This document shows positions 1 to 9,135 of a stretch of 9,135 nucleotides of DNA, piece by piece. Under the pieces are notes generated by a model. The model was given only the letters and a program-made list of their open reading frames with translations, was not told where the DNA came from and did not search any database. The stretch's first letter is position 1. Every line of letters begins with the position of its first letter. The DNA comes from a virus (lineage: Duplodnaviria; Heunggongvirae; Uroviricota; Caudoviricetes). The stretch lies in IMG/VR virus record IMGVR_UViG_2627853765_000006, positions 1 through 9,135 of that record, one strand, 5' to 3'. The position numbers and the translations under genes were made by a program.

Positions 1-1254
1 ATGCTGGAACAAATGGGCATTGCCGCGAAGCAAGCCTCGTATAAATTAGCGCAACTCTCCAGCCGCGAAAAAAATCGCGTGCTGGAAAAAATCGCCGATG
101 AACTGGAAGCACAAAGCGAAATCATCCTCAACGCTAACGCCCAGGATGTTGCTGACGCGCGAGCCAATGGCCTTAGCGAAGCGATGCTTGACCGTCTGGC
201 ACTGACGCCCGCACGGCTGAAAGGCATTGCCGACGATGTACGTCAGGTGTGCAACCTCGCCGATCCGGTGGGGCAGGTAATCGATGGCGGCGTACTGGAC
301 AGCGGCCTGCGTCTTGAGCGTCGTCGCGTACCGCTGGGGGTTATTGGCGTGATTTATGAAGCGCGCCCGAACGTGACGGTTGATGTCGCTTCGCTGTGCC
401 TGAAAACCGGTAATGCGGTGATCCTGCGCGGTGGCAAAGAAACGTGTCGCACTAACGCTGCAACGGTGGCGGTGATTCAGGACGCCCTGAAATCCTGCGG
501 CTTACCGGCGGGTGCCGTGCAGGCGATTGATAATCCTGACCGTGCGCTGGTCAGTGAAATGCTGCGTATGGATAAATACATCGACATGCTGATCCCGCGT
601 GGTGGCGCTGGTTTGCATAAACTGTGCCGTGAACAGTCGACAATCCCGGTGATCACAGGTGGTATAGGCGTATGCCATATTTACGTTGATGAAAGTGTAG
701 AGATCGCTGAAGCATTAAAAGTGATCGTCAACGCGAAAACTCAGCGTCCGAGCACATGTAATACGGTTGAAACGTTGCTGGTGAATAAAAACATCGCCGA
801 TAGCTTCCTGCCCGCATTAAGCAAACAAATGGCGGAAAGCGGCGTGACATTACACGCAGATGCAGCTGCACTGGCGCAGTTGCAGGCAGGCCCTGCGAAG
901 GTGGTTGCTGTTAAAGCCGAAGAGTATGACGATGAGTTTCTGTCATTAGATTTGAACGTCAAAATCGTCAGCGATCTTGACGATGCCATCGCCCATATTC
1001 GTGAACACGGCACACAACACTCCGATGCGATCCTGACCTGCGATATGCGCAACGCCCAGCGTTTTGTTAACGAAGTGGATTCGTCCGCTGTTTACGTTAA
1101 CGCCTCTACGCGTTTTACTGACGGCGGCCAGTTTGGTCTGGGTGCGGAAGTGGCGGTAAGCACACAAAAACTCCACGCGCGTGGCCCAATGGGGCTGGAA
1201 GCACTGACCACTTACAAGTGGATCGGCATTGGTGATTACACCATTCGTGCGTAA
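1..1254 (+). CDS. proA: gamma-glutamyl phosphate reductase (glutamate-5-semialdehyde dehydrogenase)
   Basis: 417-aa ORF ending at TAA 1252-1254; translation ([43 protein letters not shown]...) matches enterobacterial ProA as I recall it, and the gene lies immediately upstream of thrW as in E. coli. Confidence 0.95.
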
Positions 1255-1368
1255 ATAAAACCGGGTGATGCAAAAGTAGCCATTTGATTCACAAGGCCAT
1301 TGACGCATCGCCCGGTTAGTTTTAACCTTGTCCACCGTGATTCACGTTCGTGAACATGTCCTTTCAGG

Positions 1369-1444
1369 GCCGATATAGCTCAGTTGGTAGAGCAGCGCAT
1401 TCGTAATGCGAAGGTCGTAGGTTCGACTCCTATTATCGGCACCA
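1369..1444 (+). tRNA. thrW: tRNA-Thr (anticodon CGT)
   Basis: 76-nt sequence GCCGATATAGCTCAGTTGGTAGAGCAGCGCATTCGTAATGCGAAGGTCGTAGGTTCGACTCCTATTATCGGCACCA with cloverleaf-compatible arms, anticodon CGT at 1402-1404 and 3' CCA. Confidence 0.92.
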
Positions 1445-1458
1445 TTTAAATCAATAAG

Positions 1459-1930
1459 TTACACATCATTAGTACGTTCCTTATTTCTTGACTGGGACAA
1501 ATTTGGGACCGATGGGTTCAGAATCGAGTCTATTTGCCGTGCGTGTTCGGTAAGGTGATTAGGTGCGAGGTGAGCATATCGACGAACCATTTCGATAGAC
1601 TCCCAGCCTCCCATTTCCTGTAACACTGATAACGGGACTCCGGCCTGAACCAGCCAACTTGCCCAGGTGTGTCTCAAGTCGTGAAATCTGAAATCATCAA
1701 TACCTGCTCGTCTCAGCGCCGCTTTCCAGGCTGTGTTTGCGTCATACCGCATCTTCCTGACTGTTGGCGCTTTCGTTCCGTCTGGTTTGGTACAGCTTTC
1801 CTTATACACAAATACCCAACGGTGATGATTCCCGATTTGTTTTTTCAATACGCGACATGCAGTATCATTCAGCGCAACGCCAATTGCGCGGTTTGATTTA
1901 CTCTCTTCCGGGTTTATCCATGCCACCCGG
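1459..1930 (-). pseudogene. phage tyrosine integrase, C-terminal catalytic fragment (5' end removed at the IS600 boundary)
   Basis: Minus-strand ORF with tyrosine-recombinase motifs ([39 protein letters not shown]: HxxR box and catalytic Tyr). The ORF-track start codon at 1960-1962 lies inside the IS, so the N-terminal domain is missing. 3' end is 14 bp from thrW, as expected for a tRNA-integrated element. Confidence 0.8.
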
Positions 1931-1973
1931 TGAGGTGTACTGGCAATAGCGGACACTACCATTTGTTCTTTTT

Positions 1974-2792
1974 TTAAGCAGCCATCTGATGATATTTTTC
2001 CCTGAAGGCTGCCGGGGAGATATTCCCCAGACGAGAGTGACGACGCTGACGATTGTAGAAAATCTCAATGTATTCCCGTATTACTGAGATGGCTTCATCC
2101 CGGTTATTAAAACGATAGTGGCTCAGGCTCTCATTTTTCAGCGTTCCCCAGAAGCTTTCCATCGGAGCGTTGTCGTAACAGTGACCTTTACGCGACATTG
2201 ATGTTTTCAGACCAGACTGCTCCTGTATGACCCGGTAATCGTATGCGCAGTACTGTGAACCTCGATCAGAGTGGTGGATTAGCCCGGCAGGTGGGCGCTG
2301 GCTCCTGAGCGCCATAAACAGGGCTTTACCTGTCAGCTCTTTTGTCATGCGCTCTCCCATGGCGTAGCCGACAATTTCGCACGTATAAACATCTTTGATG
2401 CCAGCGAGGTACAACCATCCCTCCTGTGTGGCAACATACGTCAGGTCCGCCACCCAGACCTGATTTGGTGCTGTAGGAGCGAACGTCTGGTTCAGCAGAT
2501 TTGGCGCAACTGGCAGATTGTGGTTCGGGTTCGTAGTCGCTCTGAACTTGCGTTTCTGCTTACAGCGTAGCCTTAGCTCCTTACGAAGACGTGCCAGTCG
2601 GTCACGACCAACGATGATGCCATTCTCTGCCAGCTCCGTCTGGAGCCGCCGGGTTCCATATGTTTCGCGAGTGCGGATATGTGCCACCTTAATCTCCAGT
2701 TTTAGCCGCTCATCACTTTGTTTTCTGTCTGAGGGTTCATGCTGTACCCAGTTGTAATAACCGCTCCTGGATACACCAAATACCTGACACAT
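1974..2792 (-). CDS. IS3-family transposase OrfB (IS600-like), DDE domain; probably expressed as an OrfAB fusion by -1 frameshift
   Basis: 272-aa ORF with integrase-core motifs (…HSDRGSQY…, …[17 protein letters not shown]…) typical of IS3-family OrfB; lies downstream of orfA inside the IS. Confidence 0.85.
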
Positions 2793-2827
2793 CGCTTCAA
2801 TGGGAAATTGTTGTCGCCATTGTTCGA

Positions 2828-3130
2828 TTAACGCGTATTTTTCAGCGACTCCTGTGCAAAATACGCTGTTGCTTTTTTTAATATATCTCGCTCAAGGCGA
2901 GCTTCATTTAACGCCTTACGCAGTTGCAGAATTTCAGATTCCAGTTCAGCCACCGTGCGGGAACCAGGAGTACCGAGCCCTTTTCTGGCGGCGGTAACCC
3001 ATTGTCCTAAAGTGCCTTCAGGAAGGGATAATCGGGAAGCGCCTTCACTGATCGAAAGTTGATTTTCAAGAACCGTTCTGACAGCTTCGGCTTTGAACTC
3101 TTTAGAGTAACGTTGGTTTTTTCTGCTCAT
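2828..3130 (-). CDS. IS3-family transposase OrfA (IS600-like), HTH and leucine-zipper
   Basis: 100-aa ORF MSRKNQRYSKEFKAEAVRTVLENQLSISEGASRLSLPEGTLGQWV… matching IS600 OrfA as I recall it; positioned at the IRL-proximal end of the IS. Confidence 0.85.
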   Translation of the reverse strand: MSRKNQRYSKEFKAEAVRTVLENQLSISEGASRLSLPEGTLGQWVTAARKGLGTPGSRTVAELESEILQLRKALNEARLERDILKKATAYFAQESLKNTR

Positions 3131-3194
3131 TATTAGCTCCTTCTGATGCCATTCTATTTCAGGAAGGAGTGTCCGTTAAACTCAGGCTACCTCA

Positions 3195-3434
3195 GCGGTT
3201 ACCCTGGCGACGCGCCTTACGCGTTAACCAGCCTTCTGCTTCCAGCCGTGCGATAGCCGTTCTGACGGTACTCATCCCCGCGCCAATCTGACGGGCAATG
3301 GTTTCAATTGATGGCCAGCACACACCTTCGTCATTACTGAAATCAGCCAGGCGGGCCATAATTGCCACGCTGGATAACTTCATGCCTGATGCAGCGCAAC
3401 CATCCCATACATAGCCGGTTAATTTAGTGCTCAT
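3195..3434 (-). pseudogene. lambdoid replication-initiation protein (O-like), N-terminal winged-helix fragment, truncated by IS600
   Basis: 80 codons (MSTKLTGYVWDGCAASGMKLSSVAIMARLADFSNDEGVCWPSIETIARQIGAGMSTVRTAIARLEAEGWL…) with the C-W-P-S…IA…G-S-RTV…AI..LE..GWL pattern of HTH_36-type N-domains of phage replication initiators. The frame runs into the IS600 end, which supplies the stop (3192-3194). Confidence 0.6.
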
Positions 3435-3443
3435 GACCGACCT

Positions 3444-3782
3444 CTATTTCCCTGAATTTACGACGAAACTGTTCGAGCGGACTGAAGCATTCATGCTCAT
3501 AACCTCCGCGGAGGTAGATAACCCGCTGTGTTTCCGGCTCCCAACGAATGACTCTGACGGGCACTCCGTAGTGATCTTTGAACCAGCGGTTAACTTGTCG
3601 CAAAGGACTGTCTCCTTCTGCCGGTTGAAATCACCCACAGCCCACTCTGCAAAGCTGTGGGTTACAATTTCCCTGTCACCTGGTACATTCACTGCATAGC
3701 AATATTTCACCTTCGCTTTTCCACCCGGTACAGAAAGCGCAATCAGTTGCGAGCGACGGTAGTGTGTTGTTAAACTGTTCAT
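3444..3782 (-). CDS. hypothetical prophage protein, probably frameshifted (protein-like continuation in the -1 frame to 3424)
   Basis: 112-aa ORF whose ATG (3780-3782) overlaps the stop of the upstream CII-like gene (ATGA). Its C-terminal half is Ser-rich and low-complexity, whereas the -1 frame over 3424..3630 reads …[64 protein letters not shown]. Confidence 0.4.
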
Positions 3783-4348
3783 GCGTTAGTTTCTCCACAA
3801 CCAGAAGCAATCGACGCCACGACGCCCGGAGCTGCACACTCGCGGGCGTCATTACTTTCTGAAATGCAAAAAATTTTGTAGACAAGTGCTGCATGCTCCT
3901 GCAGCTTCGAAATTGAGAGATACAGCTCGTCGTTAATTGCTGTCTTCTCATGCGGTTCCACTACACCGTCTTCGATTGCTGAACGAATCTGTTTTGAATA
4001 ACTGCCGATCTGTTCAATGACTTCCAGCAGACGCTGGTTAATATCGGCGTTGTCCACATCCTCGATGTCAGGAAGAGACACAAAGACGCCATTTGCAGAC
4101 TGCGCCACAGCATCAGCAATGAAGTGAGTGCCACCAGCACGCTGTAAAACCATTGCCCATCCCAGCGGGAAAATCTGATCGCCATCTGCACGAAGGCGGT
4201 TGAATAAAGCGTTTTCTGTTACATCGAGCCAGTCAGCCGCTTCAGCGTAACCACCCGGCAACTTTGCGATAGTTTTTCTGACAGCTTTCACGTACCACTC
4301 AGGCTGTTTTTCTATTTTCCAGTGATGCTTACCCACGATTAGCCTCAT
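3779..4348 (-). CDS. phage regulatory protein, CII-like (YdaT-type) downstream of cro
   Basis: 189-aa ORF directly downstream of the Cro-like gene on the same strand, with an N-terminal HTH-like segment ([27 protein letters not shown]). Position and size fit the YdaS/YdaT (Cro/CII-analogue) pair of Rac-type prophages; family assignment is from memory. Confidence 0.55.
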
Positions 4349-4379
4349 CGTTCTGTGGTTAAAAATTGAAAGTGTTCTG

Positions 4380-4580
4380 CTAATCTTTCGGATAGATATC
4401 CGGTCTTAAGTCAGATTTCGTAATTGCACCTGACGTGCATTGCTCAAGTTTTTTAGCCAGCACAAAACTGGCTTTTTTATAGCCATTGAAAACCAGCCGT
4501 AAGTAGCCTTGTGTTGAGCCAACTTTTCCGGCCAACTCACCCTGCTGTTCTTTGGTTAAAGAGTCCCAATACGCTTTCAT
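4380..4580 (-). CDS. Cro-like HTH regulator (YdaS-like)
   Basis: Preferred start is the ATG at 4578-4580, preceded by GGAGG about 10 nt upstream; the longer ORF-track version (to 4883) runs antisense through cI. The 66-aa product MKAYWDSLTKEQQGELAGKVGSTQGYLRLVFNGYKKASFVLAKKLEQCTSGAITKSDLRPDIYPKD has an HTH and the C-terminal RPD(I/V) motif of YdaS-type Cro proteins; divergent from cI. Confidence 0.65.
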   Translation of the reverse strand: MKAYWDSLTKEQQGELAGKVGSTQGYLRLVFNGYKKASFVLAKKLEQCTSGAITKSDLRPDIYPKD

Positions 4581-4583
4581 ACA

Positions 4584-4656
4584 ATATGTACCTCCAGCGT
4601 ACATATTACATGATTGAAATGAACCTTCACGATACTTGTACCTTAGCGGTACAAGG
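4584..4656. promoter_or_regulatory. OR-like operator/promoter region: two 23-bp palindromic operators (9-5-9) between divergent cI and cro
   Basis: O1 4584-4606 ATATGTACC-tccag-CGTACATAT and O2 4634-4656 ACTTGTACC-ttagc-GGTACAAGG; half-site consensus A(T/C)(A/T)TGTACC; centres 50 bp apart. O1 overlaps a minus-strand TAATAT -10 upstream of cro; O2 overlaps a TTGTAC -35-like element, with TTTAAT (4658-4663) just before the cI ATG, suggesting a leaderless cI transcript. Confidence 0.5.
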
Positions 4657-4670
4657 GTTTTAATTTCGTT

Positions 4671-5345
4671 ATGAAAACAATCCATGACATCCGGCGGTCT
4701 AACGCCAGAAAACTGAGAGATGGTGTTGGCGGGAATTCTTCCTTTGCCACTATGATTGATCGCGAGCCAACCCAGACCAGCAGGTTTATGGGAGATGGTG
4801 CTACTAAAAATATCGGTGACAGCATGGCACGACACATTGAAAAATGTTTCGACCTGCCTATCGGATGGCTCGATCAAGAACACCAGACAACGAACATCAC
4901 AAAAAAACCTGATGTTTCAATCACTAACAAACAAATAACGTTAGTCCCTGTCATATCATGGGTACAGGCCGGAGCATGGAAAGAAGTTGGCTATTCTGAG
5001 GTTGATTTGAGCACAGCAGAAACTTATCCCTGCCCTGTACCCTGTGGCGAAATGACTTATATCTTGCGGGTGATTGGTGATTCAATGATTGATGAGTACC
5101 GTCCGGGAGACATGATTTTTGTTGATCCTGAAGTCCCTGCTTGCCACGGTGACGACGTTATTGCGTTGATGCACGATACAGGCGAAACCACCTTCAAGCG
5201 ATTGATAGAAGATGGAACACAGCGTTATCTCAAAGCATTACACCCAAACTGGCCTGAGCCCTACATTAAGATTAACGGTAATTGCTCTATAATTGGCACT
5301 GTGATTTTCTCGGGAAAACCAAGAAGATACAAAATAAAGGCCTAA
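4671..5345 (+). CDS. CI-like phage repressor with C-terminal S24 (LexA-type) autopeptidase domain
   Basis: 224-aa ORF with an N-terminal HTH-like region (…IGDSMARHIEKCFDLPIGWLD) and a C-terminal S24 domain carrying the Ser (GDSM) and Lys (TFKRL) dyad; divergent from the cro-like gene across the operators. Confidence 0.85.
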   Translation: MKTIHDIRRSNARKLRDGVGGNSSFATMIDREPTQTSRFMGDGATKNIGDSMARHIEKCFDLPIGWLDQEHQTTNITKKPDVSITNKQITLVPVISWVQAGAWKEVGYSEVDLSTAETYPCPVPCGEMTYILRVIGDSMIDEYRPGDMIFVDPEVPACHGDDVIALMHDTGETTFKRLIEDGTQRYLKALHPNWPEPYIKINGNCSIIGTVIFSGKPRRYKIKA

Positions 5346-5357
5346 TCAATATTTATG

Positions 5358-5380
5358 AACCTGCTTCGGCAGGTTTTTTT
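5358..5380 (+). terminator. intrinsic (rho-independent) terminator downstream of cI
   Basis: AACCTGC-TTCG-GCAGGTT hairpin (7-bp stem, UUCG tetraloop) followed by a run of 7 T, 13 bp after the cI stop. Confidence 0.75.
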
Positions 5381-5381
5381 A

Positions 5382-5418
5382 TACATTGACAATGTACCCC
5401 ATGGACACACAATGTACC
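5382..5418 (+). promoter_or_regulatory. putative PL/OL-like region: operator-like repeats overlapping a -35 TTGACA
   Basis: Palindrome TACATTGACAATGTA (5382-5396) and two direct copies of ACAATGTACC (5389-5398, 5409-5418, 20 bp apart) sharing the TGTACC core of the OR half-sites; TTGACA at 5386-5391 with a weak -10 CACAAT (5408-5413) after a 16-bp spacer. Confidence 0.3.
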
Positions 5419-5518
5419 AAAACGAAACAACAAACAGGCAGGATGCCCACGAAGTAGCCGCCTGGGGCATATGAAGTCCAAGATGATTCGTTAGCAACAA
5501 AACGCCCATAGGACGCTT

Positions 5519-5531
5519 CGCTCTTTAACAA
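5519..5531 (+). promoter_or_regulatory. boxA-like antitermination motif (rrn/nut type)
   Basis: CGCTCTTTAACAA on the + strand about 100 nt downstream of the putative PL; matches the boxA consensus (rrn TGCTCTTTAACAA; lambda nut CGCTCTTA). Flanked by the inverted repeat GACGCT (5512-5517) / AGCGTC (5545-5550). Confidence 0.45.
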
Positions 5532-5835
5532 TTTGAATATTTTCAGCGTCAATGATCTGTTTAGCTCCCTACAAGTAAATGTAGCGTAGCACCATGATAA
5601 ATCCTGCTAGTGTTTAGTTAAAAATCGCGCGAGAGCAAGAACGATGTGAGGGCAGGCAATACTGATAGTGTTATTGCTATTAGTTTATCAAAAATATTTA
5701 GACGACCCAGATGAATATTTTTAATACATACTCCCCCTAATTTAACAGGAGTAAATGTTGATGAATAACGAGACATCTATACTCAACAATTGTATGATAT
5801 GAACAATTATATAACATAATGTAGGAAAAATAAAA

Positions 5836-5970
5836 ATGGATTGGCATGACCTTATATCAAAGGTAATTATCGGACTTGTTACAGGCTCAATCGCAGCTTA
5901 CTTAACTGCGCGATATGCACTCGGCCGTTATTATAAAGAAAAATGGTGGGACAAAAGAATAGATTTGTAG
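5836..5970 (+). CDS. small predicted membrane protein (44 aa), possibly truncated by IS1
   Basis: ATG at 5836 preceded by AGGA about 9 nt upstream; MDWHDLISKVIIGLVTGSIAAYLTARYALGRYYKEKWWDKRIDL has one hydrophobic helix followed by a basic/aromatic tail. The stop TAG (5968-5970) uses the first G of the IS1 terminus, so the native C-terminus is unknown. Confidence 0.3.
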   Translation: MDWHDLISKVIIGLVTGSIAAYLTARYALGRYYKEKWWDKRIDL

Positions 5971-6024
5971 GTGATGCTGCCAACTTACTGATTTAGTGTA
6001 TGATGGTGTTTTTGAGGTGCTCCA

Positions 6025-6300
6025 GTGGCTTCTGTTTCTATCAGCTGTCCCTCCTGTTCAGCTACTGACGGGGTGGTGCGTAACGGCAAAAGCACTGCCG
6101 GACATCAGCGCTATCTCTGCTCTCACTGCCGTAAAACATGGCAACTGCAGTTCACTTACACCGCTTCTCAACCCGGTACGCACCAGAAAATTATTGATAT
6201 GGCCATGAATGGCGTTGGATGCCGGGCAACTGCACGCATTATGGGCGTTAGCCTCAACACGATTTTACGTCACTTAAAAAACTCAGGCCGCAGTCGGTAA
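6025..6300 (+). CDS. insA: IS1 InsA (transposition inhibitor/DNA-binding protein)
   Basis: 91-aa ORF (GTG start) [43 protein letters not shown]… matching IS1 InsA. Confidence 0.9.
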
Positions 6301-6344
6301 CCTCGCGCATACAGCCGGGCAGTGACGTCATCGTCTGCGCGGAA

Positions 6345-6722
6345 ATGGACGAACAGTGGGGATACGTCGGGGCTAAATCGCGCCAGCGCTGGCTGTTTTA
6401 CGCGTATGACAGGCTCCGGAAGACGGTTGTTGCGCACGTATTCGGTGAACGCACTATGGCGACGCTGGGGCGTCTTATGAGCTTGCTGTCACCCTTTGAC
6501 GTGGTGATATGGATGACGGATGGCTGGCCACTGTATGAATCCCGCCTGAAGGGAAAGCTGCACGTAATCAGCAAGCGATATACGCAGCGAATTGAGCGGC
6601 ATAACCTGAATCTGAGGCAGCACCTGGCACGGCTGGGACGGAAGTCGCTGTCGTTCTCAAAATCGGTGGAGCTGCATGACAAAGTCATCGGGCATTATCT
6701 GAACATAAAACACTATCAATAA
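6345..6722 (+). CDS. insB: IS1 InsB (transposase domain; normally made as InsAB' by -1 frameshift from insA)
   Basis: ORF …[110 protein letters not shown] matching IS1 InsB. The ORF-track start is the first in-frame ATG; the true frame opens upstream within the 3' end of insA. Confidence 0.8.
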
Positions 6723-6737
6723 GTTGGAGTCATTACC

Positions 6738-7074
6738 CAGACGGCGTACCACACAGGAAAAGATCGCAATTGTTCAGCAGAGCTTTGAACCGGGGATGAC
6801 GGTCTCCCTCGTTGCCCGGCAACATGGTGTAGCAGCCAGCCAGTTATTTCTCTGGCGTAAGCAATACCAGGAAGGAAGTCTTACTGCTGTGGCCGCCGGA
6901 GAACAGGTTGTTCCTGCCTCTGAACTTGCTGCCGCCATGAAGCAGATTAAAGAACTCCAGCGCCTGCTCGGCAAGAAAACGATGGAAAATGAACTCCTCA
7001 AAGAAGCCGTTGAATATGGACGGGCAAAAAAGTGGATAGCGCACGCGCCCTTATTGCCCGGGGATGGGGAGTAA
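6738..7074 (+). pseudogene. insC: IS2 InsC (OrfA), N-terminally truncated at the IS1 junction
   Basis: …[111 protein letters not shown] matches IS2 InsC from about residue 10; the apparent TTG start at 6724 and first residues MESLP come from the IS1 terminus. Confidence 0.8.
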
Positions 7075-7937
7075 GCTTAGTCAGCCGTTGTCTCCGGGTG
7101 TCGCGTGCGCAGTTGCACGTCATTCTCAGACGAACCGATGACTGGATGGATGGCCGCCGCAGTCGTCACACTGATGATACGGATGTGCTTCTCCGTATAC
7201 ACCATGTTATCGGAGAGCTGCCCACGTATGGTTATCGTCGGGTATGGGCGCTGCTTCGCAGACAGGCAGAACTTGATGGTATGCCTGCGATCAATGCCAA
7301 ACGTGTTTACCGGATCATGCGCCAGAATGCGCTGTTGCTTGAGCGAAAACCTGCTGTACCGCCATCGAAACGGGCACATACAGGCAGAGTGGCCGTGAAA
7401 GAAAGCAATCAGCGATGGTGCTCTGACGGGTTCGAGTTCTGCTGTGATAACGGAGAGAGACTGCGTGTCACGTTCGCGCTGGACTGCTGTGATCGTGAGG
7501 CACTGCACTGGGCGGTGACTACCGGCGGCTTCAACAGTGAAACAGTACAGGACGTCATGCTGGGAGCGGTGGAACGCCGCTTCGGCAACGATCTTCCGTC
7601 GTCTCCAGTGGAGTGGCTGACGGATAATGGTTCATGCTACCGGGCTAATGAAACACGCCAGTTCGCCCGGATGTTGGGACTTGAACCGAAGAACACGGCG
7701 GTGCGGAGTCCGGAGAGTAACGGAATAGCAGAGAGCTTCGTGAAAACGATAAAGCGTGACTACATCAGTATCATGCCCAAACCAGACGGGTTAACGGCAG
7801 CAAAGAACCTTGCAGAGGCGTTCGAGCATTATAACGAATGGCATCCGCATAGTGCGCTGGGTTATCGCTCGCCACGGGAATATCTGCGGCAGCGGGCTTG
7901 TAATGGGTTAAGTGATAACAGATGTCTGGAAATATAG
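7032..7937 (+). CDS. insD: IS2 InsD (OrfB, DDE transposase domain; normally expressed as InsCD by -1 frameshift)
   Basis: 301-aa [52 protein letters not shown]… matching IS2 InsD; overlaps the 3' end of insC in the -1 frame. Confidence 0.85.
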
Positions 7938-7948
7938 GGGCAAATCCA

Positions 7949-8230
7949 GGAGCGTTCTGGCTCGTTTTGCTGATCATCGCAGGTTGGGGCGGTCTGGTCC
8001 GCTACCTGATAGATGTGAAGCAGAGTAAAGCAACGTGGAGTTGGATAAATGCTCTGGCTCAGATAGTGGTATCAGGATTCACCGGTGTTATTGGTGGCCT
8101 GATCAGCATCGAAAGTGGATTCAGTATTTACATGATTCTCGCGACAGCGGGGATTAGTGGTGCGATGGGTTCGGTTGCACTGACGTACTTCTGGGAACGA
8201 CTGACAGGGGTGAAAAATGCAAAATCTTAA
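7949..8230 (+). pseudogene. phage holin, 5'-truncated at the IS2 right end
   Basis: 93 codons with three hydrophobic segments (AFWLVLLIIAGWGGLV / WSWINALAQIVVSGFTGVIGGLI / FSIYMILATAGISGAMGSVALTYF) and a charged C-terminus; overlaps the start of the lambda R-like endolysin. The first 9 codons of the ORF-track entry (MSGNIGANP) are IS2 sequence. Confidence 0.5.
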
Positions 8231-8473
8231 TCCTCAGCGTAAAGCTTTCCTCGATATGGTGGCATGGTCAGAAGGAACGGATAACGGGCGACAACCGACA
8301 CGTAACCACGGTTATGATATTATTGTCGGTGGTGAACTCTTCACTGATTACTCCGATCACCCTCGCAAACTTGTCACGCTAAACCCCAAACTCAAATCAA
8401 CAGCTGCAGGCCGTTATCAACTTCTTTCACGCTGGTGGGATGCTTACCGCAAGCAGCTTGGGCTGAAAGACTT
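8217..8473 (+). pseudogene. lambda R-like endolysin (lytic transglycosylase), 3'-truncated by the IS911-like element after codon 86
   Basis: MQNLNPQRKAFLDMVAWSEGTDNGRQPTRNHGYDIIVGGELFTDYSDHPRKLVTLNPKLKSTAAGRYQLLSRWWDAYRKQLGLKDF is near-identical to the N-terminal half of lambda R as I recall it; similarity stops at the IS terminus TGAAGTGG (8474). Confidence 0.8.

Positions 8474-9135
<662 letters not shown>

Follow-up and report, generated by a model that had tools for sequence, protein, structure and literature searches.

The immunity region of an e14/SfV/SfIV-type prophage

In this study we examine the immunity region carried by a 9,135-nucleotide (nt) stretch of phage DNA (IMG/VR virus record IMGVR_UViG_2627853765_000006, positions 1 to 9,135; hereafter the window), that is, a cI repressor gene of the ymfK/cohE type, the divergent cro gene and the operators and promoters around them. 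A first-pass annotation had read positions 4380-5380 as an apparently intact immunity switch, kept for a selectable reason inside an otherwise destroyed prophage. We found that the segment from 3195 to about 5540 shares 96-97% DNA identity with ymfK-ymfT-ymfL-ymfM-oweE of the e14 prophage of E. coli K-12 and, in the same range, with the immunity region of phages SfIV and PhiR29/49; SfV, Ayreon, cdtI and Stx2c phages give more partial matches. The region is the known e14/SfV/SfIV immunity and early-control module and not a novel retained switch. What is new here is a slightly degenerate copy of a fully known kind, in which parallel promoter mutations are a modest evolutionary observation.

The repressor gene lies at 4671..5345 on the plus strand, has no earlier in-frame start and encodes 224 amino acids (aa). 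Pfam places a Peptidase_S24 domain (PF00717, E 8.9e-25) at residues 93-212, and in alignment with lambda cI A100-G101 is the cleavage site and S138/K176 the catalytic dyad, the counterparts of A111-G112 and S149/K192 in lambda. Among 104 aligned rows, that of the window included, the serine is kept in 102, the lysine in 100, the alanine in 99 and the glycine in 93. A profile of the C-domain finds the C-terminal domain (CTD) of lambda cI at E 7e-21. The AlphaFold2 model (pLDDT 80.7), with a four-helix N-domain, a disordered linker at residues 73-85 and a beta-rich C-domain, matches lambda cI with RecA (8gmu, Foldseek E 1.4e-8), and its C-domain matches the lambda cI CTD, LexA and UmuD. At the N-terminus no Pfam match was obtained even at E 10; residues 1-74 belong to PHROG 12107 'transcriptional repressor' (E 8.8e-13), and the N-domain resembles that of SPC32H Rep (5d50) both by PDB profile (E 3e-10) and by Foldseek (root-mean-square deviation 1.9 Å over 73 columns). 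From these comparisons and the model, the protein is a predicted LexA/lambda-cI-type S24 repressor with an N-terminal helix-turn-helix (HTH) domain. The full-length frame with both S24 catalytic residues, as well as the HTH-plus-S24 architecture that had been put forward for checking, could thus be confirmed. RecA-stimulated self-cleavage and SOS inducibility are known by homology only and would be expected of this protein.

The 90-nt intergenic region between cI and cro contains two palindromes of the rightward operator region (OR). The left one, ATATGTAC-N7-GTACATAT (4584..4606), overlaps the -10/+1 region of the predicted rightward early promoter (PR) and the Shine-Dalgarno (SD) sequence of cro (4591-4595), and is conserved in Hafnia and Edwardsiella phages. 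The right one, CTTGTACC-N5-GGTACAAG (4635..4655), overlaps the -35 hexamer and spacer of the repressor-maintenance promoter (PRM). Both have perfect 8-bp arms and share the half-site TGTACC. With up to one mismatch, TGTAC-N7-GTACA occurs three times in the window against 0.16 expected, a count reached by 0 of 200 shuffles. TGTACC is common to four operator sites, two of them beyond cI (see below), and the corresponding pattern search, again with up to one mismatch, gave eight strand-hits at six places, two palindromes being counted on either strand, where 0.47 were expected. The half-sites in OR are conserved in SfV, SfIV, Ayreon, e14 and the Hafnia and Edwardsiella phages while the spacers vary, and the operators persist even where the phage cI is no more than 74-79% identical. 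The proposed divergent arrangement of cI and a Cro-like gene across two palindromic operators with a shared half-site is real, and the palindromes are far beyond chance. The operator consensus written down earlier needs a small correction: the left site reads CGTACA instead of GGTACA and the right site ends in G instead of T. No operator copies outside the module were found when the window was searched with the TGTACC pattern. TGTACC as such occurs 13 times in the window (3.0 expected; 0 of 200 shuffles reach 13), nine of these between 3680 and 5420 and five within the four operators; copies are also present inside cI at 4961 and 5036. Those at 3682 and 3727 were considered as extra operators and rejected, because no second half-site accompanies them and, in ymfM, they code for a repeated V-P-G peptide.

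PRM (4636..4670, plus strand) can be read from the sequence as TTGTAC (4636-4641) and an A/T-rich, -10-like TTTAAT (4659-4664), followed after 6 nt by the ATG at 4671. No SD sequence precedes this ATG. For K-12 ymfK, a class-I transcription start site (TSS) has been mapped with a 0-nt leader, that is, a leaderless mRNA (PMC4681348), and the PRM region of the window is identical to that of K-12 except for one base in the operator spacer. By analogy, the cI mRNA of the window is probably leaderless and made from PRM, as the first-pass annotation had supposed. On the minus strand the best sigma-70 match (4603..4630) predicts PR with its -35 hexamer GTGAAG at 4630-4625, a 16-nt spacer and the -10 hexamer TAATAT at 4608-4603; distant phages keep the same geometry with TTGAAG/TAATAT or TTGCAG/CATAAT. 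In the literature we found no mapped TSS for K-12 ymfT (PR), only mentions in iModulon and Reg-Seq work. The clean intrinsic terminator described behind cI stands up well: it lies at 5357..5383 on the plus strand (hairpin 5357-5376), combines an 8-bp stem, a UUCG loop and U7, folds with -13.2 kcal/mol (z -4.9) and is annotated in SfV and Ayreon. Another terminator-like match, at 4635-4655, was discarded, since it is the right operator palindrome followed by the T-rich -10 of PRM. Together with the adjoining GGTTTTAATTT this operator (4635-4668, plus strand) scores as a terminator-like hairpin of -11.4 kcal/mol, which transcripts entering cI from upstream, for example from a CII-dependent promoter of the repressor-establishment (PRE) type, would need to read through.

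Beyond the terminator, and outside the 4380-5380 box first considered, lies the leftward early promoter (PL) with its operator region OL (5386..5430, plus strand). PL reads as a strong promoter and consists of TTGACA (5386-5391), a 16-nt spacer and CACAAT (5408-5413; CATAAT in intact relatives). OL1, ATGTACC-N5-GACACAC (5392-5410), is embedded in PL and ends in GATACAT or GGTACAT in relatives; OL2, ATGTACC-N5-GAAACAA (5412-5430), is likewise embedded in PL. The homologous K-12 promoter scores 11/12 against the consensus and precedes ymfJ-xisE-intE, genes that are co-induced with ymfM late in the SOS response; the e14 genes of PL and PR are described as being under a CI-like repressor. Hafnia phage yong2 and Edwardsiella phage EPP-1 (cI 74-79% identical) have kept this layout of PL and OL as well, and OL1 of EPP-1 is a perfect palindrome.

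Leftward of the operators follow the genes of the PR operon, all on the minus strand. cro (ymfT, 4380..4580, 66 aa; YdaS/HTH_3, PHROG 35) has its SD sequence GGAGG at 4595-4591, ten nucleotides upstream of the ATG. Its product differs from that of e14, SfIV and SfV by P24Q, at the start of the recognition helix. We rejected this replacement as a lesion, an identical Cro being present in intact-looking E. coli prophages. ymfL (3779..4336, 185 aa, with a possible start at 4348) encodes a CII-like regulator (Pfam Phage_CP76, E 2.6e-13; PHROG 101, CII-like activator) and is 98-99% identical to its relatives. The ymfM-like open reading frame (ORF; 3444..3782, 112 aa) is 96% identical to K-12 YmfM and carries four replacements unique to the lineage (P17S, E26K, N86S, K93E) and no synonymous change. 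In K-12 e14, YmfM is the SOS-inducible division inhibitor SfiC, is encoded in the PR operon and causes filamentation (bioRxiv 10.1101/2020.11.19.390815). All ORFs from cI through ymfM are open in the window. The 3' half of the ymfM ORF is overlapped in another frame by a gene for a 59-aa DUF4222 protein (3424..3603; E 9.6e-18). Compared with SfIV and ECONIH4, the overlap shows 0 synonymous to 7 nonsynonymous changes in the ymfM frame and, read in the DUF4222 frame, 6:1 and 5:2; PHROG 20047 (63 aa) matches residues 1-63 of YmfM only. From these patterns the real product may be the DUF4222 protein, or no more of YmfM than its N-terminal ~60 aa, and the published filamentation clone would have carried both.

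Relatives of the module

The repressor of the window is 99.1% identical to those of SfIV and Ayreon and to YmfK, and 97.8-99.1% identical to cI across the temperate phages SfIV, SfV, Ayreon, cdtI, PhiR29/49 and the Stx2c phages; cro reaches 98%. About 1,010 of 5,426 complete E. coli genomes carry the OR region. Two properties place the window in the e14/SfV/SfIV group: the order of cI divergent from cro-cII(ymfL)-ymfM/DUF4222-rep is kept at high identity, and two OR and two OL sites of the TGTACC-N5-GGTACA type as well as PRM, PR and PL stand at their conserved places, with derived substitutions in the -35 of PR, the -10 of PL and the right half of OL1. The module as first described is an ordinary phage immunity region that had already been annotated: at the corresponding places the SfV GenBank record lists a rho-independent terminator as well as a 'putative operator region', and the Ayreon record has the terminator and a promoter directly after it. 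The labels of the 90%-identity protein clusters (a 486-aa cardiolipin synthase for cI, 'phage portal protein, partial' for Cro) look like clustering artefacts and were set aside.

The closest characterized relative is e14, which has the same genes in the same order (ymfK=cohE, ymfT=croE, ymfL, ymfM) at 97% DNA identity, an identical PRM region and identical operator half-sites, and which shares the layout of PL and OL downstream of cI. Like the window it is a defective prophage with a truncated replication gene; e14 is integrated at icd, the remnant in the window at thrW. The ancestral state is kept in e14 for PR (TTGAAG/TAATAT), PL (CATAAT), OL1 (GATACA) and cI (V64 and N191), whereas the window has GTGAAG, CACAAT, GACACA, I64, H191 and four YmfM replacements. 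SfIV, SfV, Ayreon, cdtI, PhiR29/49 and the Stx2c phages, on the other hand, are complete and plaque-forming or inducible, while the window holds a remnant of ~4 kb in which the part from cI to rep is inverted with respect to int.

To judge from the sequence, the control logic resembles the cI/Cro switch of lambda and the operator architecture does not. Divergent PRM and PR, a leaderless cI, PL and OL beyond the cI terminator and a cII-like gene after cro are common to both, and so are the S24 C-domain, the A-G cleavage site and the Ser/Lys dyad, all of which can be aligned. However, OR of lambda comprises three adjacent operators, with OR2 activating PRM, whereas the intergenic region of the window has only two palindromes, their centres 50 bp apart, with nothing site-like between them and no site positioned for such activation. 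By its N-domain the protein is a member of the SPC32H Rep-like family and not of that of the lambda cI N-terminal domain, and the operator sequences are unrelated to those of lambda. A further likeness is found in RacR with YdaS/YdaT (Rac) and DicA with DicB (Qin), where a defective prophage, as in the window, has kept a repressor gene that diverges from a Cro/YdaS-like gene and the toxic early genes behind it. Leaderless repressor mRNA is common to RacR, DicA and YmfK, and all three are classed as essential in K-12. In contrast to the RacR and DicA systems, the toxic arm of the window lineage appears mutationally silenced. RacR and DicA are not known to have an S24 autocleavage domain. The RacR/YdaS-T module has been described in the literature.

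Decay of the prophage and substitutions in sister remnants

The window can be assigned to Shigella because the sources of the exact cI protein are so labelled (391 contigs with the identical 224-aa protein; Shigella boydii or multispecies Shigella), and it contains a SfIV/SfV/e14-type lambdoid prophage at thrW. In our comparison, intact-looking E. coli prophages (L025, L028) and further Shigella remnants were located via the exact Cro protein. The remnants are of three types. Type A (the window, L006, L010, L013 and L014) lies next to proA; type B (L005, L007-L009, L011, L012 and L023) is found between lafU, an OmpA-like gene, and ecpB, has lost proA and thrW, and has ymfM cut after 43 nt by an insertion sequence (IS); type C (L027) is a separate remnant. 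The identical 224-aa cI occurs in differently decayed remnants of type B (L005, L007-L009, L011, L012) and type C (L027). The flanking genes suggest that the types are decay products of one insertion neighbourhood, which would agree with a single ancestral thrW prophage having decayed by different routes; they differ by only ~0.2-0.5%.

The predicted PR is changed in all three types. In type A, including the window, the -35 hexamer is changed from TTGAAG to GTGAAG (4630). In type B the -10 hexamer is changed from TAATAT to TGATGT (4604, 4607). In type C it is changed to TAACGT (4604, 4605), and the cro SD sequence from GGAGG to TGAGG (4595). The ten intact or functional relatives have the ancestral pair TTGAAG and TAATAT, in Edwardsiella as TTGCAG and CATAAT. 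Among the remnants 11 point substitutions vary over 1,821 nt, six of them in the 90-nt OR region (binomial 5e-6) and four, on separate branches, on the 12 hexamer positions of PR (binomial 6e-7), with one more on the cro SD sequence. If a conservative neutral target of ~750 sites free to vary is assumed, the values become 8e-4 for the OR cluster and 2e-5 for the hexamer cluster. At PL, the changes from CATAAT to CACAAT and from GATACA to GACACA are common to all remnants. Between 4239 and 5700 the window differs from L028 at 12 positions, nine in OR or OL/PL DNA, two being cI replacements and one lying downstream. An extra A at 5385, directly upstream of the -35 of PL, is peculiar to the window and absent from four other type A genomes. 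In type B remnants the segment with OL1 and the -10 is tandemly duplicated over 21 nt (L005 and L019; 20 nt in L023), and in L021 one duplicate copy has the ancestral GATACA.

The repressor itself has also changed. Against L028, the closest intact prophage, two of 675 nt in cI differ, both nonsynonymous (V64I, N191H); with D81E (L023) and T173I (L027), each private to one remnant, this gives four nonsynonymous and no synonymous changes. Functional phages, by contrast, have diverged from one another almost exclusively by synonymous changes. N191 is present in all 103 homologues and is the Asn of the C-domain motif L-N-P-x-[YW]-P, aligning with that of 'LNPQYP' in lambda cI; LexA and UmuD have Asn at the equivalent position as well. 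The window has H191 and so departs from the family here. The sequence comparison gives no indication that selection has kept cI after the decay of the prophage: that its 675-nt ORF is intact says little, because the remnant types differ by only ~0.2-0.5%. The earlier claim of selective retention is thus not borne out, the remnants having diverged too recently and all four cI changes on remnant lineages being nonsynonymous. The 'intact switch' holds for the anatomy and the open ORFs only; with cI (V64I, N191H), the -35 of PR, the -10 of PL and the OL1 half-site altered, intactness of the switch as a whole finds no support.

The rest of the prophage has been destroyed for integration, replication, lysis and morphogenesis, in agreement with the first-pass annotation: int, rep and the endolysin gene are present only as fragments, beside a holin gene, with IS1, IS2-like and IS3-family elements between them, and only ~4 kb of phage DNA is left in total. 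The window starts with proA (1-1254), 5' of a tRNA-Thr(CGU) gene (1369..1444, plus strand; ARAGORN), the thrW-type attachment site next to proA; matching genomes have the proB-proA context. On the minus strand follow a 167-aa C-terminal fragment of a phage tyrosine integrase (1459..1962; only positions 52-171 of 172 of the Pfam profile Phage_integrase), whose N-terminus is cut by IS600, and the transposase ORFs of an IS600-like element of the IS3 family (1974..3130). E. coli matches are annotated as IS600 for 3100-3195. This element, which ends near 3195, links the int fragment with a rep fragment, the N-terminal 80 aa of an O-like replication-initiation protein truncated by IS600 (3192..3434, minus strand; Pfam HTH_36; positions 1-80 of 225-298 in PHROG 11896/391). 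The uncut rep gene encodes 313 aa in SfIV and L025. Between IS600 and IS1 ~2.9 kb of phage DNA survive (3195 to ~6000), ending on the plus strand with the N-terminal 44 aa of the first gene of the PL operon (5836..5970; 198 aa in the intact relatives ECONIH4 and L025), which is cut by IS1 (insA/insB, 6025-6722). IS1 is abutted by an IS2-like element of the IS3 family (6724-7937), both on the plus strand and identified from their ORFs and from the Pfam families of the same genes in L010 and L014. A 102-aa holin (7922-8230, plus strand; Phage_holin_3_3) precedes a 96-aa N-terminal fragment (8217-8507, plus strand), which from the lambda R sequence we take to be a lambda-R-like endolysin; it is cut by a further IS3-family element (8482-9135, minus strand). 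In matching complete genomes the remnant is bounded by IS66 adjoining ykgEFG. The cI-to-rep segment is inverted relative to int (1459-3434 compared with 4671-6000): the int and rep fragments are joined through IS600, whereas intact relatives such as ECONIH4 have int on the PL side, downstream of cI. The layout could have arisen by an IS-mediated inversion with later deletions.

Fate of the repressor and its lytic arm

The K-12 orthologue ymfK/cohE, like racR and dicA, ranks as essential both by the Keio collection and by two transposon sequencing studies, probably because it silences toxic early genes; nevertheless, according to a further published study, all nine cryptic prophages of K-12 can be deleted. 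By analogy, silencing of toxic early genes is the better-documented and stronger reason for retaining such a repressor, compared with superinfection immunity. In the ancestral module a LexA-like cI, made from a leaderless PRM transcript and autocleaving in response to RecA, would bind 17-bp sites TGTACC-N5-GGTACA. The OR site over the -10/+1 region of PR would silence cro-ymfL-ymfM-rep, that over PRM would serve autoregulation and as a target of Cro, and two cI sites would cover PL. The repressor would outlive the phage as the silenced operons are toxic, the division inhibitor YmfM/SfiC among their products, so that its loss would be lethal, as for ymfK in K-12 e14.

For the window we favour, with moderate confidence, an e14-type module of repressor and toxic early genes that is being disarmed rather than preserved. 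The substitutions point to a recent, ordinary and partly disarmed relic in which the lytic arm has been silenced and cI is under looser or otherwise changed constraint, and do not point to a conserved bistable switch. Once replication and lysis had been lost, the PR operon (YmfM and others), whether expressed upon SOS induction or by leakage, would have been nothing but a cost; promoter-down mutations would then have been favoured in each lineage, and with weak PR and PL the repressor would have become dispensable and started to drift. Alternatively, the shared N191H might have weakened repression first, the promoter mutations being compensatory. Identity, architecture, homology and the distribution of mutations are what we observed, the K-12 literature contributes the leaderless mRNA, essentiality, SOS induction and YmfM toxicity, and where PR lies, what the mutations do and that selection caused them is our interpretation. 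Several points weigh against it. PR has been placed by prediction and not by mapping, and its consensus match is modest (8/12 in relatives). Essentiality and toxicity are known for the K-12 allele only and not for the strain of the window, and since B-type remnants keep cI without ymfM, ymfM alone cannot explain retention. Residues 1-60 of cI, the DNA-binding domain, are unchanged, so repression and immunity may be fully working; N191H is chemically mild, HMMER scoring the pair positive, and may be tolerated; the 4:0 count for cI is small; and the clustering may partly reflect a mutational hotspot in palindromic DNA.

The view that the switch is functionally intact and kept for superinfection immunity, or for regulating host or other prophage genes, appears doubtful to us, although much of its anatomy agrees with it. 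The N-terminal DNA-binding domain is identical to that of the live Shigella phages SfIV and SfV and of coliphage Ayreon, PRM and the half-sites of both OR operators are unaltered, and the ORFs from cI to ymfM are open. Phages of the SfIV/SfV type infect Shigella, according to the host lines of their records. They integrate at thrW. Because this HTH domain is shared with live Shigella phages, homoimmunity to SfIV/SfV-like phages is plausible, and as the domain is unchanged the repressor, if stable, should still bind operators of their type. However, cI shows no sign of purifying selection since the decay, N191H hits an invariant site, the derived mutations in PR, PL and OL1 make bistable switching doubtful, and the absence of operator copies outside the module within the window does not speak for wider targets. 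We consider it unlikely that everything is neutral, the 2.9-kb segment between IS600 and IS1 simply not having been hit yet and the substitutions marking a hotspot in palindromes. At ~0.2-0.5% divergence an intact 675-nt ORF is indeed expected by chance, the frames being open because little time has passed since the decay; functionless fragments of int, rep and the endolysin persist too, and the tandem duplication in type B and the 1-nt insertion in the window attest to local instability. Nevertheless, the four derived OR mutations, on different branches, are all found within the 12 positions that make up the hexamers of a single predicted promoter; 4630 is outside any palindrome arm, the mutations do not perfect the palindromes as template switching would, and the K-12 orthologue is demonstrably under selection. 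Finally, the OR mutations might retune the affinity of the left operator for cI and Cro, for instance to compensate for an altered repressor: 4604 and 4605 are in the outer part of its right arm, 4598 is in its spacer, and the OL1 half-site has changed as well. But the 23-bp operator includes neither 4630 nor 4607, harm would be expected from a weaker operator in front of toxic genes, and the recognition regions of cI and Cro do not vary among the remnants; we hold this reading to be highly improbable.

Within the disarming that we favour, it might tentatively be suggested, as a possibility we hold to be below even chances, that different Shigella lineages have escaped in parallel, and step by step, from a repressor/toxin addiction module, their orthologous thrW remnants being the record of this. 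Early shared changes would be V64I and N191H in cI, the -10 of PL and the OL1 half-site, with N191H perhaps as the trigger by making the repressor leaky or non-inducible. Later, type A would have mutated the -35 of PR, while types B and C would have shared the change at 4604 before B acquired that at 4607 and C that at 4605 together with the change in the cro SD sequence; ymfM would have been neutralized lineage by lineage, by replacements or by IS insertion. If this is true, it would be a natural example of bacteria defusing an essential cryptic-prophage repressor. With the same module armed and essential in K-12 e14 and its PR repeatedly mutated in Shigella, these remnants would form a natural series for the neutralization of toxic cryptic-prophage modules during genome reduction, and would predict which Shigella lineages might still be immune to serotype-converting phages of the SfIV/SfV type.

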